Notes: generated by a model not told the origin, from the letters alone. Positions 1 through 13,480 are shown, counted from the first letter of the stretch. The stretch: 13,480 bases of DNA from Myxococcales bacterium (GCA_037441385.1 JBBISH010000152.1:1-13480); one strand, 5' to 3'. Numbers and translations are program-made.

Positions 1-2823
1 GGCTGCACCACTGCGCCCAACGACCTGGCCTGCACCGACAACAACGTGTGCACCGAAGGCGACGTGTGCGCGGGCGGCCAATGCGCGAGCGGGGCAAGCA
101 AGGTCTGCGACGACGGCAATCCGTGCACGACCGACGCGTGCGACGCCGCCAAAGGCTGCGGCGCCACGGCCAACAGCGACCCATGCAGCGACGGCAATGT
201 GTGCACCAAGGGCGACACCTGCAAAGACAGCGTGTGCACGCCGGGCCCCGCCTGGGACTGCGACGACGGCAACCCGTGCACGTCGGACAGCTGTGACGCC
301 CTCAAGGGGTGCCAATACGCCAACAACACAGCGCCCTGCGACGACGGCAGCGTCTGCAGCGTGGGCGACGTGTGCAGCGGCGGCGCGTGCAGCGCGGGCA
401 AGGCGCAGAGCTGCGACGACGGCAACCCCTGCACCGACGATAGCTGCGACAAAGCCAACGGCTGTCAACACAGCAACAACACTGGCAACTGCGACGACAA
501 CAACGCCTGCACCACGGGCGACAAGTGCACGGGCGGCGTGTGCGTGCCCGCCAAGCCGAGCACCTGCGACGACGGCAACCCCTGCACCACTGAGACGTGC
601 GACCCCAAAGCCGGCTGCCAGAGCGCCAACAACACCGCGCCGTGCGACGACGGCAGCGTGTGCACCACCGGCGACACCTGCGCGGCCGCAGCCTGCGTGC
701 CCGGCAAACCCGTGGTCTGCAACGACGGCAACGTCTGCACCGACGACAGCTGCGACAAATCGAGCGGCTGCCAATTCGCCGCCAACACGGCCAAGTGCGA
801 CGACAACAACGCCTGCTCGACCGGCGACGTGTGCGCCAGCGGCAAGTGCGGTTCGACCGGCGTGGTGAACTGCGACGACGGCAACGTCTGCACCGACGAC
901 TCGTGCACACCGCAGGCCGGCTGCCAGCACGCCAATAACCTGGCCGGCTGCACCGACGGCAGCGTCTGCACCGCCAGCGACCAGTGCGCCGGCGGCACGT
1001 GCACGGCGGGCGCAAAGCTGGACTGCGACGACGGCAACCCCTGCACGACCGACAGCTGCGACGCCCAAAAAGGCTGCATGCATCAGGACAACACGGGCCC
1101 CTGCGACGACGGCAACCAGTGCACCACCGGCGATGCCTGCGCGGCCGGCAAGTGCGCGACAACGGGCGTGCAGAATTGCGACGACGGCAAGGTCTGCACC
1201 GACGATGTGTGCAACCCGCAGGCTGGCTGCCAACACAACAACAACGCGGCAAGCTGCAGCGACGGCAGCGTATGCACCGTGGGCGACACCTGCAGCGGCG
1301 GGGCGTGCGTGCCCGGCAAGGCCGTGACCTGCAACGACGGCAACGTGTGCACCGACGACAGTTGCGACGCCCAGAAGGGCTGCGTGCTGACCAACAACAC
1401 CGCGAGCTGCAACGACAACAACGGCTGCACCAGCGGCGACGTCTGCGCAGGCGGCACGTGCAAGGGCACCGTCGGCTGCTCGACCAACGCGGCTTGCACG
1501 CCCGGCGCTCAGTCCGTCAGCTGCGTGTGCAACGCCGGCTACACCGGCGACGGCTTCACCTGCAACGACGTCAACGAATGCCTGACCAGCAACGGCGGCT
1601 GCGCGCAAAACTGCACGAACAAGGTGGGCAGCTACGTCTGCTCGTGCAACAGTGGCTACAGCTTGAGCGTGGACGGCAAGGGCTGCGACGACATCAACGA
1701 GTGCGTGGTGGCCATGGCGCCGTGTGGTATGAACGGGACCTGCACCAACACCACCGGCAGCTACACGTGCGGCTGCCAGGCCGGCTTTGGCGACTGCAAC
1801 AACAACGTGCTCGATGGCTGCGAAGTCAACCTCAACACATCGTTGGCGAACTGCGGCAAGTGCAATACGACCTGCTCGAGCAACAACGTCGCGCAATTGT
1901 GCATGGGCGGCGTGTGCAGCGGCGCATGTAGCCCCGGATTTGCCGACTGCAACGGCGACAAGAAGTCCGACGGCTGCGAGGTCGACACGACCCAGACCGC
2001 CAGCAGCTGCGGCGCGTGCAAACAAGTCTGTTCGAACCAGAACATCACCTCGCCCACCTGCGCGGCCAGCACCTGCAACGGCAGCTGCGACGCCGGCTAC
2101 GGCGACTGCAACGCCGACAAGCTGAGCGACGGCTGCGAGACCGACTTGGCCACGGCGACCGCCCACTGCGGCAAATGTGGCAAGGCGTGCTCGAACAACA
2201 ACATCTCGTCGCCCACCTGCTCGGGCGGCGCCTGCAACGGCACCTGCGACACGGGCTTTGCCGACTGCAACCTGGACAAATTGGCCGACGGCTGCGAGGT
2301 CAACCTCAATACCGACAGCGCCAACTGCAACGGCTGTGGCAAGGTCTGCGCCAACGGCGCGAGCTGCGTCAACGGCAGCTGCGTCGTCGACAAATTGGTG
2401 CCGGGCAACACCACGCTGGTCGTTACGCGCCAGGGCTTCAAGGTGCAGTGCAAGTCGTGGAGCGGCACGACCTGCACGGCGATGTGGGTGGCGATGCCGC
2501 TCACGGCCATCACCAACCAGGCGTCGTGCGGGGTCGACGACTTCACCAGCTTGCGGCCGGTGTGGTGGGGCAGCGCGACGGCCCAATGCGCCTCGCTCTG
2601 TTGGATCGCAACGGGGGACAGTACTTGCGTCGCCGCCAACACAAGCGGCGGCAGCTTCACCGGCGGCGGCTGGATGTACACGGGCACCTCCGTCGGCTGC
2701 GACGCGTCGGGCCGCGCGTACAGCGAAGTGGACGTGCCGGTGGTCGGCAAGCAGATCTGGTCGTTCGACAAGATTTCTTGGTCCCGCACAGGCACTTACT
2801 CGACCTACACGTGCAAGTGGTAG
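1..2823 (+). CDS. Large Cys-rich extracellular repeat protein, 5'-partial (CTDC-like repeats, EGF/cbEGF domains, Cys-rich repeats of a second type, unique C-terminal domain)
   Basis: Frame 1 is open from base 1 (GCTTAPNDLACTDNNVC...), so the GTG at 46 is not the true start. TAG at 2821-2823. Third codon positions are almost all G/C. Nine 51-aa C(D/N)DG(N/K)xCTx(D/E)xC...GC units, three EGF-like modules (including DVNEC and DINEC with CxNxxGSYxCxC), four G(F/Y)xDCNxxxxDGCE...CxxCxxxC units, then a roughly 145-aa non-repetitive C-terminus. Confidence 0.92.
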   Translation, partial: GCTTAPNDLACTDNNVCTEGDVCAGGQCASGASKVCDDGNPCTTDACDAAKGCGATANSDPCSDGNVCTKGDTCKDSVCTPGPAWDCDDGNPCTSDSCDALKGCQYANNTAPCDDGSVCSVGDVCSGGACSAGKAQSCDDGNPCTDDSCDKANGCQHSNNTGNCDDNNACTTGDKCTGGVCVPAKPSTCDDGNPCTTETCDPKAGCQSANNTAPCDDGSVCTTGDTCAAAACVPGKPVVCNDGNVCTDDSCDKSSGCQFAANTAKCDDNNACSTGDVCASGKCGSTGVVNCDDGNVCTDDSCTPQAGCQHANNLAGCTDGSVCTASDQCAGGTCTAGAKLDCDDGNPCTTDSCDAQKGCMHQDNTGPCDDGNQCTTGDACAAGKCATTGVQNCDDGKVCTDDVCNPQAGCQHNNNAASCSDGSVCTVGDTCSGGACVPGKAVTCNDGNVCTDDSCDAQKGCVLTNNTASCNDNNGCTSGDVCAGGTCKGTVGCSTNAACTPGAQSVSCVCNAGYTGDGFTCNDVNECLTSNGGCAQNCTNKVGSYVCSCNSGYSLSVDGKGCDDINECVVAMAPCGMNGTCTNTTGSYTCGCQAGFGDCNNNVLDGCEVNLNTSLANCGKCNTTCSSNNVAQLCMGGVCSGACSPGFADCNGDKKSDGCEVDTTQTASSCGACKQVCSNQNITSPTCAASTCNGSCDAGYGDCNADKLSDGCETDLATATAHCGKCGKACSNNNISSPTCSGGACNGTCDTGFADCNLDKLADGCEVNLNTDSANCNGCGKVCANGASCVNGSCVVDKLVPGNTTLVVTRQGFKVQCKSWSGTTCTAMWVAMPLTAITNQASCGVDDFTSLRPVWWGSATAQCASLCWIATGDSTCVAANTSGGSFTGGGWMYTGTSVGCDASGRAYSEVDVPVVGKQIWSFDKISWSRTGTYSTYTCKW
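106..1476 (+). repeat. Coding tandem repeat, 153-bp (51-aa) period, 9 units plus a partial unit upstream
   Basis: Units start at TGC codons from 106 to 1330, and 106+8x153=1330 exactly. Each unit has two CxDxxxC(T/S)xxDxC-type halves that resemble the Dictyostelium CTDC repeat. Units are diverged at DNA level. Confidence 0.9.
1774..2385 (+). repeat. Coding repeat, four ~52-aa Cys-rich units (CxxG[FY]xDCNxxxxxDGCE...CxxCxxxC)
   Basis: CQAGFGDCNNNVLDGCEV, CSPGFADCNGDKKSDGCEV, CDAGYGDCNADKLSDGCET and CDTGFADCNLDKLADGCEV in the translation. This repeat type is typical of myxobacterial surface proteins. Confidence 0.85.
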
Positions 2824-3074: not shown

Positions 3075-6000
3075 ATGCAACGTGCCCAATTTGAGGGGCC
3101 GCATCTCCAAGCGGCCGCACAAGACGAATCCGCAGGAGCCGTCCACACCGTCGCGCCGCGCGCTCTGGGGCTCCTGCCCGCGGCGACCCCCGCGTACGGC
3201 TCACGCCGCCGGGTTCGCCAACGGCCGCAACCCCAAACGAGCTTGAGATTTGGCGTGCTAGCGCTGGGCGTGGCCATACTGCTGTTCGGCGGTTGCAGCG
3301 ACCAGCCCAAGGCAACCAACACCAGCACCGGCGCTGCGGTGGATAGCAGTGTGGTCGATAGCGATGACGCCGCCGGCGCGGAAGACGCTAGCGCGATCGA
3401 AGTGGACGCTGCCAGCACGGATATCGCCGTGGCCACCGACGCAGAGGACTCGGCACCTGCAGACAGCGACAGCTCGACGGGCACCGATGCGACGCCGCAA
3501 GAGGACACGCCGATTGATAGCCAGGACGATCAAGCGATTGCAGAGGAAGCCGGTCAGGACACCGCCGACGCTGTGCCGGACACGGCCGTGGAGCCAGATA
3601 CTGCAGCGGGCGAGGTCTTGGACGACGCGGACAGCCAGGCGGACGTCGATGCGGGCCCGGCGGATGCAGCGGCCGAGGACGCCGACGCGGGCGATGCCGG
3701 TTCCGCAGACGCCGCCGACACTGTAGACGCCGCCGACACTGCGGACGCCGCAGCCGGCGATGCGGACGGTGCTGGACCGGGCGATGACGCGACCAGCAAA
3801 GACAGCGGGCCCGACGACCCCTGCAGTTGCGGCGCGGCGTGCAACGGCAAGGCGTGCAACGACGGCAGTCTATGTACCACCGACGACAAGTGTTCCGCTG
3901 GGTCGTGCGCCGGCACGCCGGTGGTCTGCGCAAACTCGGGCCCGTGCACGGTGGGCCAGTGCGAGATCGCCACGGGCAGCTGCCAAATTGTCAGCGCCAA
4001 AGACGGCTTGGCCTGCGACGACGGCAAGGTGTGCACCACCGGCGACGCCTGCAGCGCGGGCACCTGCGCGGGCAAGGCCCAAGGCTGCGACGACGGCATC
4101 GACTGCACGTTTGACACCTGCAACGGCAGCGGTTGCGTGCACTTGCTCTCGACCAAGCCGTGCGACGACGGCGACGCCTGCACCACCGGCGACCTGTGCG
4201 CCAAGGGCGCTTGCTCGGGCTTGCCGATCTTGTGCGTAGACGGCAGTCCCTGCACGGCCGACGGCTGCGACCCGGCCAAGGGCTGTGTGTTCGTGGCGAT
4301 GGTCGGCGTGGCGTGCTCGGACGGCAGCAAATGCACCACCGACGACCTGTGCAGCGGCGGCAAGTGCGTAGGCGGCCCGCCTCTGAATTGCGACGACGGC
4401 AACCCCTGCACCGCCGACACGTGCAGCCCCACCGCGGGCTGCAACCACGAGGCCGCGGCGGGCGCGTGCAAAGTGGACGCCAGCGTGGGCACTTGCGTGG
4501 CCGGGGCGTGCTGTGTCCCGCAGTGCAGCGGCAAGGCGTGCGGGCCCGATGGCTGCGGCGGCGTCTGCGGGGCGTGCGCCGCCGGCCAAACCTGCCAGCC
4601 GGATGGCACGTGCCTGGTCGACGGCTGTGCCGGCATCTCGTACCAGGGCTGCTGCGACGCCGGAGTGATCAAGTGGTGCGAAGGCGGCCTGGCCAAATCC
4701 CTCACCTGCGCCAACGCCGCGCCGGCATGCGGCTGGGACGCCGCCAACCAGTTCTACAACTGCGTCAAAGTGGCGTCGGTCGACCCCAGTGGCCTCAACG
4801 CCTACGGCTGCCCCGGCGCTACCTGCAAGGCCGCCGCATTCACCGGCTGCTGCGCCGGCCACGTCTGCGAGTACGACAGCTGCGGCAAGAAGGGCGCGCA
4901 GGTTCAGTTCTGCGCCTTTGGCTGCGACGCGGCCACGCAAAAGTGCTATGCCGACCCGTGCCAGGGCGTGCCGGCCAGTGGCGTGTGCGCGGTGGACGGC
5001 GCGTCGTACAGCTACTGCGCCGCCGGCTCGGACGGCTCGAGCGCTCAAATCCACACCGAGGCCTGCAAGCCGTACGAAACCTGCAAGGAAGTTGGCGGCA
5101 TCACCAGTTGCGCCCTCAAGGCTGGCGCGTGCGAGCCCGGCACCGCACAGTGCACTGGGGCCGACGAGTACAGCGTCTGCGACGACAAGGGCGTACCCAC
5201 CAAGTACGCCTGCCCCGGCTGCAAGACCCACTACCTTGGCACGAGTTGCCAAAAGGCCATTGAAACCACCGTGTACACGGCCACCTTTGTGTACGACTAC
5301 AAAGTGCCGGCCGGCGACCTGTCGGATTGGAGCGCTTCGGTCGCCAGCGCACCGTTGGCTTTTGCGGCGGTCTATTCGATGCACAAAGATGCCTCGGGAA
5401 CTACGCTGAGCCTGCTGGACTCGACCTACACCGACGAGCAAGGCAAGTTCTCGATCTTGGTGGCGAAAAATCCCGCGAAAGAGGACTTTGTGGCGGTAAT
5501 GGCGGCGCGGGCCAACGGCAGCCAGCAAATCGTGCTGGGCGTGGGCAACGCCGACGTGCCGGCCGGCGAAAATCAGGTCAGCAACCCCGTGCCCGCCGAC
5601 ACGTCGCACCTGTGGTCGTGGTCCGTCCCGTCGTCGAACTGGGGGACGAGCGACTCGTGGTCGATTGGCATCGCCAACGGCTCGGGCGCCGCGCGGATCT
5701 TCTCGATCATGAACGAGGTGTACGGAAAGTCCCAGCAGATCACCGGCAAGGCCGGCAAGTCCGTGGTCGCCTGGCTACACTATGGTTCGACTTGGACGTG
5801 CGGTGCGTGCTTTGGCCCGTGGAACGCCCAAGTGAACAACACCGTTTTTGACTCGCAGCTGTGGTTTGGCGCCAGCGACGCCGACGAGGCCTACTGGTCC
5901 GACGCCGTGACCGCCCACGAGATGGGCCACTGGGCGATGGCCTCGTACGGCACGTCGCCCAACGAGGGCGGCACCCACATGCTGGGCGTGCCGACCTTCT

Positions 6001-6509
6001 CGGGCCAAGCCTGGTCCGAGGGCTTTGCCACCTGGCACAGCAGCCTGGTCCGCAACAGCCCGGTATACTTCGACAAACAGGACGGCACCTTCTTCTGGTT
6101 CAACATCGACAAAGCGGTGTACAGTGGCGGTGGCCCGCTGATCGAGCCGGATCCCCAAGGCGACCTGCTGCAAAAAATGGACGAAAATCGCGTCGCGGCC
6201 ATCGTTTGGGCGCTCACCGACACCACGACGGTGCCGTACGGCGCGGCAGTCAACAACGTGCTGTTCCAGGCGCTGACCGGCCCGCACATGAATACGGCGC
6301 CCTTCCCGCGCGGCTACAAGCGCCACGTGTGGACGCTGGACACGAGCAACTACCCCCCAGTATTCAAGGATGTGGTCGAGACCAGCGAGTCGGCGCCGAT
6401 GGTGGCCGATTTCTTGGACGCACTGGCATGCCTTGGGGTCAAGTCCACCAAGTTGCAGGCCGCGGTGCAGACCTACCCATTCCCAGTTGCCGCCCCCTTG
6501 TGCCCCTAG
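3075..6509 (+). CDS. Cys-rich lipoprotein with C-terminal gluzincin-like zinc metallopeptidase domain
   Basis: Purine-rich GGGGGGAA precedes the ATG. Hydrophobic stretch ending in lipobox-like LLFGGC. Long Asp/Ala-rich linker, CDDGxxCTxxDxC repeats and a CVPQCSGKACGPDGCGGVCGAC module. HEMGH at 5916..5930 with downstream WSEGFA (Glu codon 6018..6020). The start is uncertain; TTG at 3243 would give a normal-length signal peptide. Confidence 0.88.
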   Translation: MQRAQFEGPHLQAAAQDESAGAVHTVAPRALGLLPAATPAYGSRRRVRQRPQPQTSLRFGVLALGVAILLFGGCSDQPKATNTSTGAAVDSSVVDSDDAAGAEDASAIEVDAASTDIAVATDAEDSAPADSDSSTGTDATPQEDTPIDSQDDQAIAEEAGQDTADAVPDTAVEPDTAAGEVLDDADSQADVDAGPADAAAEDADAGDAGSADAADTVDAADTADAAAGDADGAGPGDDATSKDSGPDDPCSCGAACNGKACNDGSLCTTDDKCSAGSCAGTPVVCANSGPCTVGQCEIATGSCQIVSAKDGLACDDGKVCTTGDACSAGTCAGKAQGCDDGIDCTFDTCNGSGCVHLLSTKPCDDGDACTTGDLCAKGACSGLPILCVDGSPCTADGCDPAKGCVFVAMVGVACSDGSKCTTDDLCSGGKCVGGPPLNCDDGNPCTADTCSPTAGCNHEAAAGACKVDASVGTCVAGACCVPQCSGKACGPDGCGGVCGACAAGQTCQPDGTCLVDGCAGISYQGCCDAGVIKWCEGGLAKSLTCANAAPACGWDAANQFYNCVKVASVDPSGLNAYGCPGATCKAAAFTGCCAGHVCEYDSCGKKGAQVQFCAFGCDAATQKCYADPCQGVPASGVCAVDGASYSYCAAGSDGSSAQIHTEACKPYETCKEVGGITSCALKAGACEPGTAQCTGADEYSVCDDKGVPTKYACPGCKTHYLGTSCQKAIETTVYTATFVYDYKVPAGDLSDWSASVASAPLAFAAVYSMHKDASGTTLSLLDSTYTDEQGKFSILVAKNPAKEDFVAVMAARANGSQQIVLGVGNADVPAGENQVSNPVPADTSHLWSWSVPSSNWGTSDSWSIGIANGSGAARIFSIMNEVYGKSQQITGKAGKSVVAWLHYGSTWTCGACFGPWNAQVNNTVFDSQLWFGASDADEAYWSDAVTAHEMGHWAMASYGTSPNEGGTHMLGVPTFSGQAWSEGFATWHSSLVRNSPVYFDKQDGTFFWFNIDKAVYSGGGPLIEPDPQGDLLQKMDENRVAAIVWALTDTTTVPYGAAVNNVLFQALTGPHMNTAPFPRGYKRHVWTLDTSNYPPVFKDVVETSESAPMVADFLDALACLGVKSTKLQAAVQTYPFPVAAPLCP

Positions 6510-6535
6510 CCGGCCGTCCGGGCCGAGGAGGAACC

Positions 6536-7036
6536 ATGTCGAAAGTATTGGTGATTCTAGCCGTCGTCGTCACTGGGTGGGCAAGTTGGCTGGCGACGGC
6601 CCCCGAGGCTGCGGCCACCCCTGCCAAAAGCCCGCTCAAGGTCGCCCTGACGGGCCCAGAGAAGGTGGCGGTGGGCGAGACCATCGCGGTCGTGCTGACC
6701 ATCGAGCGAATGGCGTTCCAGAACTTGGAGGTTCAATGGCAGGTCGCGCTGCCGGCGGGCGCGCGCGCGGTACCGGGCGAGCCGCAAGCTGGGGTGTTGC
6801 CGGCGGGTGCAAGGCCCAACCTGGTGCAGACTCTGCACTTGATGGTGGATGAGCTGCCCAAAGACGATCTGGTGGTCACGGTGCGGATGGCCGGCAATGG
6901 CATGGGGCTGCAGAGCAAGGCGACCTATCGCTTTGGCCGGACAGCACCTGTGGGGCCGCGACCGAGCCCGGTACCGGTGCCTGGGAAGGTGAACGGCAAG
7001 AAGATTGGTGCCACGATTCCGCTGCCGGCGCGCTAG
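6536..7036 (+). CDS. Small secreted protein (166 aa), probable Ig-like beta-sandwich
   Basis: Strong RBS GAGGAGG before ATG 6536, 26 nt after the peptidase stop. N-terminus MSKVLVILAVVVTGWASWLATAPEAAA looks like a signal peptide. Alternating hydrophobic beta-strand pattern (LKVALTGP, IAVVLTIE, VQWQVALP, LVVTVRM). Pro/Lys-rich tail. Confidence 0.85.
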   Translation: MSKVLVILAVVVTGWASWLATAPEAAATPAKSPLKVALTGPEKVAVGETIAVVLTIERMAFQNLEVQWQVALPAGARAVPGEPQAGVLPAGARPNLVQTLHLMVDELPKDDLVVTVRMAGNGMGLQSKATYRFGRTAPVGPRPSPVPVPGKVNGKKIGATIPLPAR

Positions 7037-7149: not shown

Positions 7150-7173
7150 ATTACTGACCGAATGTTCAGTAAT
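7150..7173. promoter_or_regulatory. Inverted repeat ATTACTGA-N8-TCAGTAAT (operator-like; weak hairpin alternative)
   Basis: Perfect 8-bp arms at 7150..7157 and 7166..7173, AT-rich in a GC-rich context. Function is inferred only. Confidence 0.45.
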
Positions 7174-7180
7174 TGGTCGT

Positions 7181-8449
7181 CTAACTCGCTGCCCGGGCGG
7201 TTGCGTCCTTGGCCAGGCGGTAACCCTTGCCGTGAACGCTCTCGATGGTGTCGCGCGGTATTTCGGCGTCGGCCAAGTCGTCGCGCAAACGCTGGAGCAG
7301 CGCTTGCAGGCGGATGTGCGCCGACTGCCCCTGGTAGCCCAGAGCCGCCGCCAGGTCGGCGCGACTCGCTACGCCGGGGTGGGCCGCCGCCAGGGCCAGG
7401 ATCAATTTGGCGCGATCGCCTTCTAGGAAGATGGACTTGCCGCCAGTCGGGGAGCCCACTGCGAGTTCCGCGGCAGCCACGCGCCGCTGGGCCAGGACCT
7501 GCTCTGCGTCCGCACACTTGCGCAAGTAGCGGCCGGGCTCGCCGTCCAACATGCGGGGCTGACCGGCCTCGCTCCAGTCGCTCCAAGCCAAGCCGCTGCG
7601 CAGCAATTCCAGCTCCGCCTGCGGCGCCAGGTCCGCGCCGGCCGTTTTTCCTGGCTGCCAATTCGGCGGCAGCTGCGCCAGGGTCCCAGACTTGCGAAGA
7701 TCGCGAACAGCGCGTTCCACTGCCGGCATCCCGACTTGCGCGAGGTAGCGGGACAGCAGTTGCGCCTGCTCGGCCAGAGCATCGGGAGCGTCCTTGCGCA
7801 CGGGCGAGGTGACGGCCGTGGCCAACTGGCCGACCACGCTGGGATGGCCGCCAGCGGCGCTCAACATCGCAGTGCCCCAGGAAGGCAAGTGCTGCAACCC
7901 CCGATCGGAACTCAAGGCGTCTCGGTAGCTGGCAAGGTCGTCGGCGATGCGAAGGTGGACGCTGGGGATCTGCGCAACGGGGACCAGCAACTCGTTGCGG
8001 CAGCGCAGAGCCAACGCCGAGCTGTCGTCCAGCCGCCACCGACTGCACAGGTCATTCAGCGAGATCGTGGCGGTCATCGCCACCCAGTGCCCCCCATCCG
8101 CCGTCTCGGCAAACAGCTTGTTGATGCTGGAACTGGCCTGCCTGCCGTCCATATGATCCACGTCGTCGATCAGGATGCACGAGGGCTCGGCGGGCATTGG
8201 CACGCCGGCGGGACTCCGGCGACCGCTGGCACGGAAGACCGGCCGCCCCTGTTTCGCCAGCTCGCGCTCAAGCCAGTACAACAGGCTGGATTTTCCGATG
8301 CCGCGTCCGCCAAATGCGAGCAGGCGCAACCCATCGCCAGCCGAGACCCGGGCCAGTTCGGCCTCGACAAAATCCGGAAAAGCGCAATAGGGCGGCTGCA
8401 GGCTCGGCCGCTGCTCCTGCTTGCCTGGCGACGATTCACCCGCACTCAT
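7181..8449 (-). CDS. STAND-like P-loop ATPase with C-terminal OmpR/PhoB-type winged-helix DNA-binding domain
   Basis: RBS GGAGG 5 nt before the ATG. Walker A GGRGIGKS (aa 47-54), Walker B ILIDDVD, STAND-type GxP motif AAGGHP. C-terminal ~85 aa (7438..7184) SRADLAAALG...LQALLQRLRDDL...IESVHGKGYRL matches the Trans_reg_C pattern. No receiver domain seen. Confidence 0.85.
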   Translation of the reverse strand: MSAGESSPGKQEQRPSLQPPYCAFPDFVEAELARVSAGDGLRLLAFGGRGIGKSSLLYWLERELAKQGRPVFRASGRRSPAGVPMPAEPSCILIDDVDHMDGRQASSSINKLFAETADGGHWVAMTATISLNDLCSRWRLDDSSALALRCRNELLVPVAQIPSVHLRIADDLASYRDALSSDRGLQHLPSWGTAMLSAAGGHPSVVGQLATAVTSPVRKDAPDALAEQAQLLSRYLAQVGMPAVERAVRDLRKSGTLAQLPPNWQPGKTAGADLAPQAELELLRSGLAWSDWSEAGQPRMLDGEPGRYLRKCADAEQVLAQRRVAAAELAVGSPTGGKSIFLEGDRAKLILALAAAHPGVASRADLAAALGYQGQSAHIRLQALLQRLRDDLADAEIPRDTIESVHGKGYRLAKDATARAAS

Positions 8450-8464
8450 CTTTGCCTCCGTGCG

Positions 8465-11400
8465 TCAAAGGTGACGCGTATAGGCACGAACATAGGCCTG
8501 ACAAAGCTCGCTGGATAGGGCGTAGGTCAGCTGCTCGCTTTGGGGAAGGATTTGCCTGGCAATCAGGCCGGCCTGCCGCAGCGTTTGCAGCGTGAAGTCC
8601 AAGTCCCCCTGCGCAGTCCCCGGCTTGTCCCCGGCCACGGCGTTGATCAACTGCCCGTCGGGCAGCGGCCCGTGCTCGGCCAGACTGAGCAACACGTCGC
8701 GCGCGATCGGAAGCAAAGGCGCCGGAACCTCGTTGCGCCTGAGCAGGAAGGCCGCCTCGTCTTGCAGAACGTGTCGGAGGGCCGGTCCCACGTCGTCGTC
8801 GGTGTAGCGCAAGCTTGGACCGTTGCGTGCAGACGCGATGCGCCACAGCTTGTCGGCCAGCAGTCCGGTCCAATAGGGGTCGCCGCCGGTCACCTCGAAG
8901 ACGCGCGTCGCCACTGTACGCGGAACGTCCAGGTCCGACCGTGACCAACCCAGCTTGGCGGCGCGCAGCAGCGCCGTGGTTTCGGGCTGCAAGAAGGGCT
9001 GCATCTCGACCTGCCTGGCATCGTTGCGCAACGCCTTCCTCAATGGCTCCGACTTCAGCGACTCGGCCGCAGCCGACGGTCCGACCAGGACCAACGTGCA
9101 GCTGGACATGGCCCGACAGGTGGCGATGAACTGCAGAAATCCTTTTGTTTCCGCCGGATCCGATGCACAGGCCTTGGCAAGACGCACAGCCTCGTCCAGT
9201 ACGATCAGGACGCGCCGGCCCCGCAGGTGCTTTAGCCAGGCCTCGACCTTGTCCGCTTGGGGTGGCTTCAGGTCGGGCAGTCGCTCGGCAAATGCCGCCA
9301 CGAGGCGTGGTTCGCACTGCGACCAGCTCGCATCCAGGCATTCCAGGTAGACTCCGCGCGCCTCGGGCGCGTACTTCGCCTCGAATGCGGTGTGGAAGCG
9401 ATGAGCGAGCGAGGTCTTGCCAAACTTCAGGGCGCCCTTGAGAAAGACGAGCGAGCCCAGACCCGTCGCGTCCGGCGTGGCCAGCGCGGCCAAGCCAAAC
9501 AACTCGCCAAGCTCGTTTTCGCGGCCGTAGAAGCGCTCGTCGCGGCGCACCGGCTCGTTCACCACGTAGGGATTCTCTAGGCTTAATCCCCGGAGCGGGT
9601 TGTTGCTGCGCGGCGGTAGATCGCGCTCCAAGTCGCGGTCGCGTTCCAGGGGCCCAAGCGCGCGCCAGACGAAGTCCAAGGCCCCGATTTTGGCCACAAC
9701 ACGGTCGATCAACCGGGTGTCGTTGCAGTCCAGTAGCAGGCGGATCACGCCCACGCGCGGATTCAGGCGCCGCGCCGACACGTCGATGATGTCGATCTGG
9801 GCCTGGCGAAAGTGCCCCAGGATCTCGAACAGCGCGCCCACCCGGTTCGAGGTTTCCATGACCACATACTGGCTCACCGCGGCGCGCTCGACCGTTTCGA
9901 TCTTGCAGGCGTCTTTGGCGCAATGCGGCGGCCGGTGTTCAGCCCAGCGGTGCAGGACAAGCTCGCCGTCTTCTAGCGTGTAGCCGATGGGGTCAGACGC
10001 TCGCGGCCGGCACAGCCTGCAGACGCGGCGCCTTGTGTACTTGTCGCGCAGTTCTTCCGGCATGATCAGGTCGCGAACCAGCACCCGGCTGCGGCCGATC
10101 AGCTCCAGGATTCGTTCTGCATTGGCTTTGGTGGCACCGATGGCCCCAAGATCGACGCCGTGGGCCGACGCTCCCGACTGCACCGCCAGCCAAATCCCAA
10201 TGCGGTGCAGCCAAAGGCGCGAAGGAACCGCTCCCAGCAACGGCAATCGGCCGCTAGCGGAGTCCCGCACGGCCTGCCGCAACGCCAAGTCGACCATGTC
10301 GTCGATTTGGTCCAGGCGGGGCGGAAAATCCTCGGTGCCCTGCAACTGCTGGTGCACCCAGCACCGCCCGGCCTCGATGCGAAGCGGCTGCAGGGCCTGA
10401 CGGGCGGCTTCGCGCATGCGCCTGACTACGGTGTCGCCCACCTTGCTCTCCCAGCCGGCGGGCAAAACGTTGAACTCCGAGTACTCTGTCGCCTCGTGCC
10501 GAAGGATCTGCACCACGTCGCCGGACTGAAGGGGGTCCAGCGGGCCGAGCAACAACGATTGGCCGGCGCGCACAACCGTCGCCCCGCGCACAAAGCACGC
10601 GAGCTGTTCGTGGACGTCGAGCGCGAACTCCAGGACACAAGCCCCAGCGCGCAGCCGGTGCTCCTTGCGTGTCGGCGTGAGGACGCGCAAGGCCGTCGAT
10701 GACGCAATTGGCCGCAATTCATCCGTAATTTCGTCAAGCGACACGGGTGCAGCCGGGGTGGACGAATCTCGGACGACCAGGCGAAGCGGAATCTCAAGGC
10801 CACCGACATCGACCGCGGTGTGCACGGCTCGGTACCCCGTTCGGCCTGGCGCTGCGAAGTGACGGAAGCCATCGCGCTTGGGCTCATGCCGTTCGTGCAG
10901 TTGACCAAGTGCGGCATAGGCGTCGGCAAATTGCGCCACAGTTGCCGTAACAAAGCCGGATCCACGCAGAGTTCGACTCCACACAGCCGGCGGCAACGGG
11001 TCCAGCGCCGCGTGGATCGATGCCAAGTGCCGCCACTGCCAGGTCCATTCCAGGCTGCTGCTCAGCGCACTCCGGACGCGGGCCACGCCGTCGGCCACGG
11101 CGCCACCTTCGGCCACCAGCGCACGCATGTATCTGGACAGTTCTGTGCCGCGCGTTTGCGGGTTTTCGGCATGGCGCTTGGGCTGATCCACAAGCAAATA
11201 GCAGTCTTCTAGGTCGTTGCGCTCTTGCCACATGCCGAGCCGCCGCGCGATCGCGGCCGCGATGGGCACCATCCGGAGTTGCGGCGCCGCCTCGGTTGCG
11301 GGAACCGTTGCCCGCGGCTCAGGCACGGCGTTCTGCGGGTCCGACCGGGTCGCCGCCAGCCAGCTGCGCCGCTCACCCAGGGGATCGATGCGCCACAACT

Positions 11401-11749
11401 GTTCAAGAACAAACAGGGGCACCAGCATCGGGTGCGGCGCCAAGTCAAAGACGACGCGCGTGGCCTTTTGACTGTCGCTCGGTCCCAGTTGGCCCAGACC
11501 GGCCCGCAAGCGGACGTAGTCGGTCTGCAACTTCATCAAACTGGGCTCGTAGTGCCGAAGTTGACTGGCGAGCCACGCGGCCGGCTCGGGGCCGACTGCA
11601 ACGAGCAAGCTGGCCGCAGTCATGTGCTCCGAGCCAAAACGCGCATGCACCTCGCGAGCCAGCCCGACGAACGGGGCAAGGTCCGGGTTCTCCATCGCAA
11701 GGCGGATACACAGCATATCCGTTTGATGTTGCTGCATGAAGTCGACCAC
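8465..11749 (-). CDS. Degenerate long RelA/SpoT homolog (pseudo-HD, pseudo-SYNTH, TGS, ZFD, ACT) fused to STAND-type ATPase with C-terminal winged helix
   Basis: RSH landmarks in canonical order: IARRLGMWQERNDLED, ADAYAALGQLH, GYRAVHT, TGS (VLTP...LRAGACVLEFALDVH...LQSGDVVQIL, aa ~354-416), ZFD (CRLCRP..DPIGY..LVLHR, aa ~575-615), ACT (SNRVGALFEI...IDIIDV, aa ~627-697). Then NPYVV..FYGRENEL, Walker A GALKFGKT (9436..9413), Walker B VLIVLDE and TGGDPYW. ATG at 11737, preceded by GAGGTG, is an alternative start. Confidence 0.88.
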   Translation of the reverse strand: MVDFMQQHQTDMLCIRLAMENPDLAPFVGLAREVHARFGSEHMTAASLLVAVGPEPAAWLASQLRHYEPSLMKLQTDYVRLRAGLGQLGPSDSQKATRVVFDLAPHPMLVPLFVLEQLWRIDPLGERRSWLAATRSDPQNAVPEPRATVPATEAAPQLRMVPIAAAIARRLGMWQERNDLEDCYLLVDQPKRHAENPQTRGTELSRYMRALVAEGGAVADGVARVRSALSSSLEWTWQWRHLASIHAALDPLPPAVWSRTLRGSGFVTATVAQFADAYAALGQLHERHEPKRDGFRHFAAPGRTGYRAVHTAVDVGGLEIPLRLVVRDSSTPAAPVSLDEITDELRPIASSTALRVLTPTRKEHRLRAGACVLEFALDVHEQLACFVRGATVVRAGQSLLLGPLDPLQSGDVVQILRHEATEYSEFNVLPAGWESKVGDTVVRRMREAARQALQPLRIEAGRCWVHQQLQGTEDFPPRLDQIDDMVDLALRQAVRDSASGRLPLLGAVPSRLWLHRIGIWLAVQSGASAHGVDLGAIGATKANAERILELIGRSRVLVRDLIMPEELRDKYTRRRVCRLCRPRASDPIGYTLEDGELVLHRWAEHRPPHCAKDACKIETVERAAVSQYVVMETSNRVGALFEILGHFRQAQIDIIDVSARRLNPRVGVIRLLLDCNDTRLIDRVVAKIGALDFVWRALGPLERDRDLERDLPPRSNNPLRGLSLENPYVVNEPVRRDERFYGRENELGELFGLAALATPDATGLGSLVFLKGALKFGKTSLAHRFHTAFEAKYAPEARGVYLECLDASWSQCEPRLVAAFAERLPDLKPPQADKVEAWLKHLRGRRVLIVLDEAVRLAKACASDPAETKGFLQFIATCRAMSSCTLVLVGPSAAAESLKSEPLRKALRNDARQVEMQPFLQPETTALLRAAKLGWSRSDLDVPRTVATRVFEVTGGDPYWTGLLADKLWRIASARNGPSLRYTDDDVGPALRHVLQDEAAFLLRRNEVPAPLLPIARDVLLSLAEHGPLPDGQLINAVAGDKPGTAQGDLDFTLQTLRQAGLIARQILPQSEQLTYALSSELCQAYVRAYTRHL

Positions 11750-11846
11750 CTCGCGCGCGCCACTGCGGCTTGTGGCACCGTTGTAGTGTTCTCAACGACG
11801 GCGACCGCGTCAAGTTTGCAAAAAGTTTTTCACACTCAAATTGGAG

Positions 11847-11875
11847 TTGACATAAGTTGTATTCGGTTATATAGC
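11847..11875 (+). promoter_or_regulatory. Candidate sigma70-type promoter for the M23 gene
   Basis: Perfect TTGACA (11847..11852), 17-nt spacer, TATAGC (11870..11875). Lies in the most AT-rich patch of the window, 86 nt upstream of ATG 11962. Confidence 0.55.
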
Positions 11876-11961
11876 GTGGGTGCGGCCAGTACTTGCGGGC
11901 CGCGAGAGTGCCAGAGGCGCAAACGGCCGCGCGCCAAGGGGGCGCGGTCACCGGAGGTCCC

Positions 11962-13480
11962 ATGTTGCCCAATCGAAACGCTCGAAAACTGTGGTTCCAT
12001 AACGAAATCGCCTGGATCTTGCTGAGCACTCTGCTCCAGCTGGCCTGCACGGCGGCCAAGGACGGCGACGGGCCCGCGGCGCCCGAGCTGGCCGGCAGCG
12101 GGCAAATCGCGGGGGCTCTAAGTCAGCCGCTGCAGGCGCCGTTCGCGCCGGCCGCGGGGCCGCTGACGCCGTCGCAGTGCTTCAACGGGACGCTGACCCA
12201 CAACAGCGCGGCCCTGCAGTACGGGATCGACTACATCATGCCGATCGGCACGGATGTGCTCGCGGTTGGCCCGGGCAAGGTCGCCTTCACCAACGACACG
12301 TGCGCCAACAACCAGTCGGCCTGTGTAAAGGGTGTGGCCAACGCGACCTGCGACTGCTTCCACGGCATCGGCAACGTGGTGGTGGTCGAGCACGGGCCCG
12401 GCGACTACTCGCTGTACGCCCATCTGAACAAGGGGAGCCTGCTCGTCGCGGTGGGGCAGCAGGTGTGCACGGGCCAGGTGTTGGCCAAGTCGGGCTGGTC
12501 GGGCTGGGGCACCGGGGCGCATCTGCACTTCCAGATGCAGTCCACGGCCGGCGGCGCGACGACCTTGGCCGATGGCTACGTCAGCAAATCCTTTGACGGT
12601 TGGTATCAGCCCAGCGGCGGCCTCCAGAATCCCTGCGGCGCCCTCACATCCTACAACAATTCAACCACCTCGTGCGCCTCGGCGGTTGCGCTGCCCATCA
12701 ACCAAGTCACCAACGGCGCCGTGGCCAAGGGCGAGTGGGCCAAGTACTCGTTCAACAAGTTGGCGGGAAAGGCGTATTCGGTGCAGCTGCATCCCCTGGG
12801 CGGCGATCCGGATCTGTACGGCCACTTCGACCCGGCGGTCAGCGCCAGCAATTTTCAGCACAGTTCCGTCAACGGCGCCGGCAGCGACGACGTGATCAAG
12901 TTCAGCGCGTCTGCCGATGGGGTCTACTACATCGCGGTGCTGGGGTACTCGGCCGCAACCTACACGCTCAAGGTCGTTGAATCGGCCGGCGACGACCATG
13001 GCAACACGGCGGCTACGGCGACGCCAGTGGCACTGGGGGCGACAACCAGCGGTTCGATCGAGGTCGCGGGCGACGTCGATTTCTTCTCCTTCAAGACGGT
13101 TTCCGCCGGCTCGATCGCGGTGTCGACCTCGGGGACCACCGACACCTACTGCTACCTGATCGACGCCAATGGCAAAGTCCTGGCGGAAGACGACGACAGC
13201 GGCCCGGGTACCAACTGCCTGGCGGCAATGCCCTTGGTGCCGGCGGCCACCTATTTCGCCAAAGTACGCCACTATTCAAGCGGCTCTGGCCCGTACGCGG
13301 TGCAGGCGACGGCGACGGGTTCCGCTCCGCCCAGCTACAGCTGTCCCGGCAACTGCTCGGGCCATGGCACCTGCAACACCGCCAACGGCCTCTGCACCTG
13401 CAGCGGCGGCTACAGCGGCAGCAACTGTGCCACGCCGCCCAGCTACAGCTGTCCCGGCAACTGCTCGGGCCATGGCACCT
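11962..13480 (+). CDS. M23-family metallopeptidase lipoprotein with two PPC-like domains and EGF-like repeats, 3'-partial
   Basis: Translated by hand in frame 1; no stop to the window end, so it is absent from the ORF track. GGAGG at 11953..11957, then MLPNRNARKLWFHNEIAWILLSTLLQLAC (lipobox-like). M23 motifs THNSAALQYGID, GTDVLAVGPGKV, GNVVVVEH, YAHL and GAHLHF. PPC-like GGDPDLY...GVYYIAVLGY and DDHGNT...GDVDFF...EDDDSG. C-terminal CPGNCSGHGTC...CTCSGGYSGSNC. Confidence 0.9.
   Translation, partial: MLPNRNARKLWFHNEIAWILLSTLLQLACTAAKDGDGPAAPELAGSGQIAGALSQPLQAPFAPAAGPLTPSQCFNGTLTHNSAALQYGIDYIMPIGTDVLAVGPGKVAFTNDTCANNQSACVKGVANATCDCFHGIGNVVVVEHGPGDYSLYAHLNKGSLLVAVGQQVCTGQVLAKSGWSGWGTGAHLHFQMQSTAGGATTLADGYVSKSFDGWYQPSGGLQNPCGALTSYNNSTTSCASAVALPINQVTNGAVAKGEWAKYSFNKLAGKAYSVQLHPLGGDPDLYGHFDPAVSASNFQHSSVNGAGSDDVIKFSASADGVYYIAVLGYSAATYTLKVVESAGDDHGNTAATATPVALGATTSGSIEVAGDVDFFSFKTVSAGSIAVSTSGTTDTYCYLIDANGKVLAEDDDSGPGTNCLAAMPLVPAATYFAKVRHYSSGSGPYAVQATATGSAPPSYSCPGNCSGHGTCNTANGLCTCSGGYSGSNCATPPSYSCPGNCSGHGT
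13327..13480 (+). repeat. Exact coding direct repeat, 108-bp period (EGF-like unit)
   Basis: The 46 nt at 13327..13372 are identical to 13435..13480 (PPSYSCPGNCSGHGT). The second copy is cut by the window end. Confidence 0.9.

Follow-up and report, generated by a model that had tools for sequence, protein, structure and literature searches.

A long RelA/SpoT homolog with degenerate catalytic centres fused to a STAND NTPase module, encoded in a two-gene operon of a Myxococcales bacterium

We analysed a 13,480-nt stretch of DNA from a Myxococcales bacterium (GCA_037441385.1, JBBISH010000152.1:1-13480; hereafter the window), in which an earlier note made from the sequence alone had pointed to a two-gene operon at 7181..11749; both genes lie on the minus strand. 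The upstream gene, geneA (8465..11749), encodes a protein that, as read from its sequence, is a long RelA/SpoT homolog (RSH) without the residues for making or breaking (p)ppGpp, joined at its C-terminus to a signal transduction ATPase with numerous domains (STAND) module. This fusion defines a protein family that is real and apparently undescribed. The downstream gene, geneB (7181..8449), encodes a P-loop NTPase with a C-terminal winged helix. The anatomy of the two proteins and the structure of the operon are near certain. We tentatively hold a functional reading, possible though doubtful, in which the dead RSH docks and gates the STAND module, the signal is handed to the geneB protein, and transcription changes.

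Comparison of the geneA product (P0001) with long RSH proteins revealed the complete domain order of the latter, namely hydrolase (HD), synthetase (SYNTH), TGS, helical, zinc-finger (ZFD) and RNA recognition motif (RRM)/ACT domains. The hydrolase-like pseudo-HD domain (residues ~1-125; 11375..11749, minus strand, as for all geneA and geneB features) was placed by alignment with the canonical Rel P0145, and lacks the HD and ED catalytic residues. It is followed by a nucleotidyltransferase-like pseudo-SYNTH domain (residues ~161-330; 10760..11269), which matches residues 180-338 of RelA, and by a TGS domain (residues 353-420; 10490..10693) that scored 28 bits with Pfam TGS against a cut-off of 22.2. 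The helical domain (residues ~421-570; 10040..10489) has modelled helices at 439-553 and is collinear with RelA and SpoT in Foldseek alignments. The zinc finger (ZFD, or RIS; residues ~571-615; 9905..10039) contains C577-x2-C580...H600...C610, which aligns to the CC..P...H..C region of RelA. The RRM/ACT domain (residues ~622-700; 9650..9886) gave a weak Pfam ACT match of 15.1 bits, below the cut-off, and is modelled with a beta-alpha-beta-beta-alpha-beta topology.

The relationship to long RSH proteins was seen in both sequence and structure searches. A phmmer search of PDB sequences aligned three stretches of geneA (SYNTH, TGS, and zinc finger plus ACT) collinearly with E. coli RelA, and a three-sequence family profile matched mycobacterial RelA with an E-value of 1.4e-21 over SYNTH, TGS, and ZFD plus ACT. 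An AlphaFold model of geneA, built from an 80-member alignment, had a mean predicted local distance difference test score (pLDDT) of 86.3 and a predicted template modelling score of 0.68. In a Foldseek search, the first ~750 residues matched ribosome-bound RelA (5iqr_8, E 2.6e-18, 746 columns); the N-terminal part also matched full-length SpoT (7qpr) and B. subtilis Rel (6yxa), and the matches spanned 592-786 columns. The curated spoT_relA model TIGR00691 gave P0001 29.4 bits against a cut-off of 499.2, and Pfam RelA_SpoT was not found in P0001 at E 0.1. GeneA thus resembles RelA, Rel and SpoT in its six-domain order, its TGS His and its zinc-finger Cys and His residues, and differs from them in having two degenerate catalytic centres and an added C-terminal STAND module of 360 aa. 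As far as these alignments tell, it is a descendant of a long RSH, yet it falls short in its SYNTH residues, its HD residues and its score with the curated model. The term 'pseudo-RSH-STAND', which the earlier note had applied to geneA, is accurate in respect of profile, fold and lost catalytic residues.

To locate the losses, identical residues were counted across 80 family members aligned to P0145 (HD_4 143 bits, RelA_SpoT 119 bits), in which the motif numbering equals that of Rel. The positions of Rel H77, D78, E81 and D82 are occupied by V, A, P and E in P0001, and by FLHG in the family consensus, in an N-terminal region that aligns with less certainty. In E. coli RelA, too, the HD domain is inactive. 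In the SYNTH domain, R241 and K243 fall in gaps in 80/80 members, and K251 (0/80, with His in 70), D264 (6/80), E323 (2/80) and Q325 (1/80) are hardly kept; these six are the positions that we take to be catalytic. Y308 (77/80), H312 (69/80) and R327 (61/80), which are presumably structural, are largely retained. For D264 the role does not rest on our assumption, D264G being described in the accessible part of PMC7797070 as a synthesis-dead mutant of B. subtilis Rel. P0001 itself keeps only E323 by the alignment used for counting, and none of these catalytic residues by a second alignment (A5).

The scaffold around the lost residues is conserved. Among the domains, TGS has the highest conservation (2.13 bits per column), followed by RRM/ACT (1.87), pseudo-SYNTH (1.70) and the nucleotide-binding domain (NBD) of the STAND module (1.69). 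In PMC7797070, a TGS His, which is H420 in B. subtilis Rel and H432 in RelA, is described as stacking against the CCA end of the deacylated tRNA in the A site; its equivalent is present in 51/80 members, including P0001. The zinc-finger residues C577, C580 and H600 are invariant in 80/80 members, as is R670 in the RRM. In pseudo-SYNTH, 22 columns exceed 3 bits, and motifs particular to the family were found (W237 and W239 in WEWRH, G265, Y278 and H285). The column scores indicate that this domain is remodelled and not simply decaying. WEWRH (geneA residues 237-241, ~11027..11041) stands where active synthetases have the RxKxxxSxxxK ATP-binding motif, and its W237 and W239, at above 4.1 bits, are among the most conserved columns of the family.

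The same conservation could be taken to mean that geneA is a re-tooled nucleotidyltransferase, which makes or binds another nucleotide signal in its remodelled SYNTH pocket and is controlled by the STAND module. The family-specific motifs and the retention of Y308, H312 and R327 are what such an enzyme might display; on the other hand, the ligands of the ATP phosphates and of Mg2+ (R241, K243, K251, D264 and E323) are gone from nearly all members, and Pfam RelA_SpoT does not detect the domain in P0001. We consider this explanation very unlikely.

The C-terminal STAND/AAA+ module of geneA (residues 736-1094; 8468..9544) consists of a FYGR motif, Walker A (772-780; 9410..9436), Walker B (847-854; 9188..9211), a GGDP motif (955-958; 8876..8887) and a terminal winged helix. 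Walker A/B and GxP motifs had been claimed for both proteins of the operon, and both contain them in order: the core motifs are G772-T779, V847-E853 and GGDP at 955-958 in geneA, and Walker A G47-S54, Walker B C91-D96 and GGHP 200-203 in geneB. In 20000 composition-preserving shuffles, Walker A and B together arose 5 times for geneB and 6 times for geneA, and all three motifs in order arose in 0/20000 for either gene. In the family alignment, G777, K778 and S780 of Walker A, D852 and E853 of Walker B, and the GxP glycine G956 are invariant, and the conserved switch is apparently competent.

A Foldseek search with the C-terminal 360 residues of geneA matched the archaeal PF01637-type ATPases 2qen (TMt 0.65, root-mean-square deviation 5.4 A) and 2fna (0.59), as well as Orc1/Cdc6 and plant NOD-like receptor (NLR) resistosomes. 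The modelled fold is NBD-helical-winged helix. Pfam did not reveal C-terminal sensor repeats (TPR, WD40 or LRR), and the winged helix, which reaches residue 1094, is the last part of geneA. In the model, the module is thus a STAND/AAA+ nucleotide-binding oligomerisation domain (NOD) by its structure, without sensor repeats. It shares with the known switches (AAA_16, ATPase_2 PF01637, nSTAND1, Orc1/Cdc6 and NLR NODs) the FYGR..EL lead-in, Walker A/B, the GxP helical domain and the winged helix after it, and it differs from them in lacking TPR, WD40 or LRR repeats and in having an entire pseudo-RSH as its N-terminal partner.

To investigate the occurrence of the fusion, protein collections were searched with geneA. 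A word-index search returned two relatives only, at 30% identity, one of which bears the JGI name '(p)ppGpp synthase/HD superfamily hydrolase/... ATPase ExeA'. An exhaustive HMMER search returned 173 cluster representatives at E<=0.001; of these, 129 remained at E<=1e-10 and 100 at E<=1e-30, with the query's own entry being counted. Most members are 1070-1160 aa long and match in one stretch over nearly their full length, which indicates that geneA belongs to a real family of uniform architecture. None of the 150 family hits listed exceeds 1304 aa, and no Trans_reg_C domain was found in the 28 hits scanned with Pfam, which included the six longest. Identity within the family is ~25-30%, with long branches.

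A FastTree phylogeny of 88 rows was rooted on P0145; by the tool's own warning, long branches are placed unreliably. At its base are P0140/P0141 and P0138, followed by a fully supported stem of length 1.39 leading to a degenerate clade of 84 rows, within which P0001 lies on an end branch of 1.75. The three basal fusions pass the HD_4, RelA_SpoT, ACT_4 and nSTAND1 cut-offs, and P0140 and P0141 score 372.8 and 364.9 with spoT_relA; these basal forms already lack D78, R241, K243 and K251. P0140, P0141 and P0138 resemble transitional forms that connect active Rel enzymes with the degenerate clade. A separate 236-aa protein, P0119, matches the ACT-to-Walker A region of geneA over its residues 7-173 and continues into a Fis-type HTH_8 domain (47 bits). 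This reflects either a gene call that is truncated or chimeric, or a short variant in which the RRM and the start of the NOD are joined to a DNA-binding domain.

Searches with tblastn of plasmids and phages with P0001, and of plasmids with P0016, P0022 and P0019, returned nothing or ordinary relA/rel only. Recruitment of nearly any kind of domain is well known among STAND proteins. A description of a long-RSH-STAND fusion was not found in the literature searched, which covered the accessible text of the RSH surveys PMC3153485 and PMC7229694, their supplements and subscription journals lying outside its scope. Neither was one found in the main text, as available, of the conflict-system surveys PMC7159879 and PMC8195603, with supplements again outside the scope.

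In both proteins' wider setting, a role in biological conflict has to be weighed. The N-terminal module of a STAND protein is usually an effector and not a sensor, which speaks against a docking role for the RSH part. Fungal NLRs that carry an N-terminal RelA_SpoT effector domain, as described in the part of PMC4986451 open to us, speak against it as well. On these grounds geneA might act in conflict or abortive infection in the manner of an NLR, with the RSH scaffold as its effector: the STAND module would oligomerise, and the clustered TGS, zinc-finger and RRM domains would fill ribosomal A sites or sequester deacylated tRNA and so stop translation, with geneB as a local operon regulator, like the winged helix-turn-helix (wHTH) regulators of defence systems, and not the output. 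In the accessible text of the surveys, TGS and the RelA nucleotidyltransferase are among the effector-position domains of NTP-dependent conflict systems (PMC7159879), and nSTAND1, which the basal members match, is a clade named in counter-invader systems (PMC8195603). The rapid evolution of the family is in keeping with this, as are the faint hits that P0140 and P0141 gave with PADLOC candidates and with an anti-phage model of NCBIfam.

Several results oppose it. PADLOC-DB 2.0 returned 0 families for geneA and geneB (E up to 0.1), and 0 for the four neighbours and P0016 (E up to 0.01). The link to defence or conflict systems raised in the earlier note is thus not borne out, there being no protein known to this database as defensive in or beside the operon. 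The genes nearby, for an M23 peptidase and for secreted proteins with Cys-rich repeats, do not form a defence island. GeneA has no C-terminal repeat sensor past its winged helix; the family keeps a uniform length of ~1070-1160 aa, without the effector swapping typical of conflict systems; and searches of the phage and plasmid collections returned no relatives. We regard the conflict role as rather unlikely.

Other RSH-derived proteins with unusual roles differ from geneA in similar ways. CapRel, an RSH-family protein of defence and toxin-antitoxin systems, is small and active, unlike the long, inactive geneA. Toxic small alarmone synthetases (toxSAS), as far as described in the available text of PMC7229694, are likewise RSH-derived proteins outside the classical stringent response with tRNA or translation as target or cue; unlike geneA, which is long, inactive and STAND-bearing, they are small, catalytically active synthetases with antitoxin partners. 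The fungal RelA_SpoT NLRs have, like geneA, an RSH-derived domain N-terminal to a STAND NOD. In the portion of PMC4986451 consulted, theirs is a SYNTH domain only, followed by NACHT or NB-ARC and WD40 or other repeats, whereas geneA has the whole TGS-to-RRM tail, has lost catalysis and has no repeats after the NOD.

We examined the operon itself in a window with 64-71% G+C and many chance open reading frames (ORFs). GeneA is 1094 aa long when read from the GTG at 11749; its true start is probably the ATG at 11737, which gives 1090 aa, is preceded by GAGGTGG, lies four codons inside the ORF and is the start of the database form (P0003, 1090 aa). The geneA TGA stop at 8467..8465 was read directly at the junction. 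GeneB (P0002, 422 aa) begins with an ATG at 8449, after a spacer of 15 nt (8450..8464) that contains GGAGG at 8455..8459, 5 nt before this ATG. A terminator scan did not reveal a terminator-like site between the two genes. The G+C content at codon positions 1/2/3 is 0.71/0.48/0.79 in geneA and 0.70/0.53/0.81 in geneB and is even along both genes, a coding signature of a high-GC genome, whereas overlapping alternative ORFs have third-position values (GC3) of just 0.46-0.56. The co-orientation, the 15-nt spacing and the GGAGG ribosome-binding site (RBS) of the second gene, all claimed before, were therefore seen at the junction, between two genes with GC3 of the coding type.

The operon consists of exactly two genes, bounded downstream by a hairpin and a convergent gene and upstream by a divergent gene. 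The hairpin is a perfect 8-bp inverted repeat at 7150..7173 (ATTACTGA / TCAGTAAT), 8 nt past the geneB stop; it is a possible terminator, lacks a T-run and was not called by the terminator scan, in which the number of terminator-like sites was at chance level (4 seen, 4.2 expected). The divergent intergenic region (11738..11961, 224 bp), between geneA and the M23-peptidase gene, is a candidate promoter/operator. Its repeats are short and at chance level, and no sigma-70 consensus site was found upstream of geneA. Rfam families and tRNAs were not found in the window.

The geneB protein has its Walker A at 8288..8311, Walker B at 8162..8179 and GGHP at 7841..7852, and ends in an OmpR/PhoB-type winged helix (residues 338-412; 7214..7438). 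The latter matched Pfam Trans_reg_C (PF00486) over profile positions 2-77 of 77 with an E-value of 3.7e-5 and 24.1 bits, below the cut-off of 26.2, and the NCBIfam models PRK07239 (E 3.1e-5) and CseB (E 0.0048). Neither a Response_reg receiver domain nor an AAA-type Pfam family was found in geneB at E<=0.1. The description of its C-terminus as an OmpR/PhoB-type wHTH without a receiver was thus upheld. A weak match to NCBIfam Hda covered residues 41-132 (E 0.0011). ESM Atlas look-alikes, which are leads and not alignments, were clusters with 79-100% Trans_reg_C for the whole protein, often with AAA_22, AAA_16 or nSTAND1/2 (scores 0.91-0.96), and small AAA/STAND/DnaA-type ATPases for residues 1-335 (0.90-0.93).

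Homologs of geneB were not detected. A tblastn search of plasmids found none, a phmmer search of PDB sequences gave nothing significant (TcpP, E 1.8), and the best match among 153 collected proteins (E 0.0098) covered the P-loop only. Its nearest analogues are MalT/LAL, AfsR/SARP, DnaA/Hda and Orc1/Cdc6, in which a P-loop NTPase and a DNA-binding domain are combined in one chain. The wHTH of geneB is of the OmpR/PhoB type, as in SARPs; in SARP/AfsR it is N-terminal, as opposed to C-terminal in geneB, and unlike these regulators geneB lacks a BTAD, TPR or LuxR domain. The possibility that geneB is a paralog of the geneA NOD was dismissed: BLASTP found nothing, and the hhalign match was confined to 34 columns around Walker A, with a probability of 58%.

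We looked for the gene pair in other genomes. A scan with geneA matched 271 stretches, none of which was confirmed. A second scan used the TGS peptide L[PG]xGATVL[ND]F, and 80 loci (L001-L080) were kept among the matches listed. All were ordinary RelA/SpoT, covering query residues 149-691 only, and a tblastn search of these loci revealed neither the geneA STAND part nor a geneB-like gene. The second scan was swamped by ordinary relA, because the TGS peptide also occurs in RelA/SpoT. L[PG]xGATVL[ND]F is common in the ordinary RelA/SpoT of Bacteroidales, Campylobacterales and others; WEWRH or the FYGR/Walker A junction would be a more specific signature of the family. Since geneB is without a detectable homolog and geneA has at least 100 clusters, there is no indication that the partner accompanies the family.

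Coupling of the two proteins through their ATPase domains, proposed in the earlier note, was assessed by complex prediction with geneA residues 725-1094 and the 80-member alignment, and with geneB without an alignment. The score was 0.34 (runs 0.35, 0.34 and 0.00), compared with 0.00 for the best of three controls; at least 56% of contacts are common to the runs, and the partner has a pLDDT of at least 65. In the calibration of the tool, the mark was reached by 116/157 solved complexes and 2/215 mismatched pairs; at scores of 0.60 or less, it was reached by 18/157 solved complexes and by both passing mismatches. The prediction, a weak pass, gives a small push towards binding of geneA and geneB and no more. 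Of the earlier interpretation, the anatomy of both proteins is right; the coupling is at most weakly supported, and the two domains are not paralogs.

The two genes might instead be co-transcribed and independent. GeneA would then act alone, and geneB would be a lineage-specific MalT/LAL- or DnaA-like AAA+/STAND transcription factor for its own operon or for the neighbouring secreted-protein genes. This would suit an orphan geneB beside a geneA with a large family, the lack of detectable kinship between the two NTPase domains, the strong RBS that geneB has of its own, and the absence of Trans_reg_C and of proteins over 1304 aa among the scanned and listed family hits. The 15-nt spacing on the same strand within a closed two-gene unit favours a common function instead, and the complex score of 0.34 against 0.00, weak as it is, leans the same way. 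We judge independence somewhat improbable.

The docking-and-relay chain that we tentatively favour would comprise three steps. The dead RSH scaffold would dock on ribosomes or deacylated tRNA through its TGS, zinc-finger and RRM domains, as their computed conservation suggests. The STAND module, if it works as other STAND proteins do, would then have its nucleotide state and its oligomerisation set by this docking. In this organism, the state might conceivably be handed to the co-transcribed geneB protein, and transcription would be changed. A ppGpp-independent route from translation status to transcription, as the earlier note had put forward, is plausible, because the tRNA- and ribosome-binding domains are the best conserved in the family. 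A more ambitious version is an alarmone-free stringent-like pathway, in which a catalysis-stripped RelA reads tRNA charging in the A site, and STAND oligomerisation recruits or activates an ATPase-winged-helix partner that rewires transcription; this we think distinctly improbable.

Besides the usual effector position discussed above, several results weigh against the chain. The TGS His is replaced in 29/80 members. With Pfam, the STAND module of P0001 scores below the cut-offs for AAA_16 (26.5, cut-off 32.6), AAA_22 (24.3, cut-off 27) and NACHT (21.2, cut-off 26.7); relatives score above them, with 46.2 bits for AAA_16 in P0006 and 45.8 for nSTAND1 (cut-off 27.1) in P0140. On the side of geneB, the Trans_reg_C match is below its cut-off, and a word-index search at near and longer lengths only, in which remote relatives were not sought exhaustively, returned no homolog. 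A single-sequence AlphaFold2 model of geneB was poor (pLDDT 42.5), with an N-terminal strand-helix pattern that suits a P-loop domain. The two NTPase domains share only the P-loop, and the geneA-geneB pairing rests on a single locus. The complex prediction is of a kind that, by the calibration of the tool, is oftener wrong than right unless the pairing is already likely; one of its three runs scored 0.00, and it used an alignment of our own making. Because AAA+/AAA+ packing resembles solved Orc/Cdc6-type assemblies, the pass may also come from likeness.

RelA and SpoT are known as enzymes with a ribosome-reading tail; here, selection has kept the tail and scaffold, the chemistry has been discarded and a STAND switch has been added. 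If the alarmone-free pathway exists, the RSH-STAND family of ~100 clusters would be a widespread and overlooked class of ribosome-coupled NTP switches. If the scaffold binds ribosomes or tRNA, the family would offer a natural example in which the state of the ribosome is sensed through an NTP-dependent oligomeric switch and not through an alarmone. Such proteins would interest the stringent-response and the bacterial NLR/STAND fields, and would offer a clean test of the function of the RelA C-terminal domains without catalysis. Through geneB, one such switch would gain, at this single locus, a direct transcriptional output.

The four neighbouring genes all lie on the plus strand. Divergent from geneA, with a GGAGG of its own, is the M23 peptidase gene (11962..13479, running off the window end), which encodes two PPC domains and EGF-like repeats. 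Its N-terminus resembles a lipoprotein signal (LQLAC), and it is a candidate target if geneB binds DNA. Convergent to the operon is a gene for a 166-aa protein with a signal-peptide-like N-terminus (6536..7036; RBS GAGGAGG, GC3 0.79). It is hidden within a longer chance ORF (5861..7036) and has no Pfam or PADLOC match.

Further from the operon, the gene at 3075..6509 encodes a protein of 1144 aa. Its N-terminal part is of low complexity and rich in Asp and Ala; Dicty_CTDC repeats are present, and an HEMGH (HExxH) motif lies C-terminally. The product is a possible secreted zinc metalloprotease; Pfam did not assign it to a protease family. An ORF at 1..2823, which runs off the window start, encodes a large Cys-rich protein, probably secreted, with Dicty_CTDC/cEGF repeats. 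One of these two large Cys-rich neighbours has a weak MXAN_6577-like match. The secreted neighbours and the G+C content of 66% point towards a myxobacterium-like source without proving it. In the ORF at 1..2823, the Dicty_CTDC/cEGF repeats are encoded by tandem repeats at 90..1462, with units of 153 bp (9 copies) and 306 bp (3.9 copies) and 65-71% matches; this repeat region has a strong A-over-T skew of 0.38.

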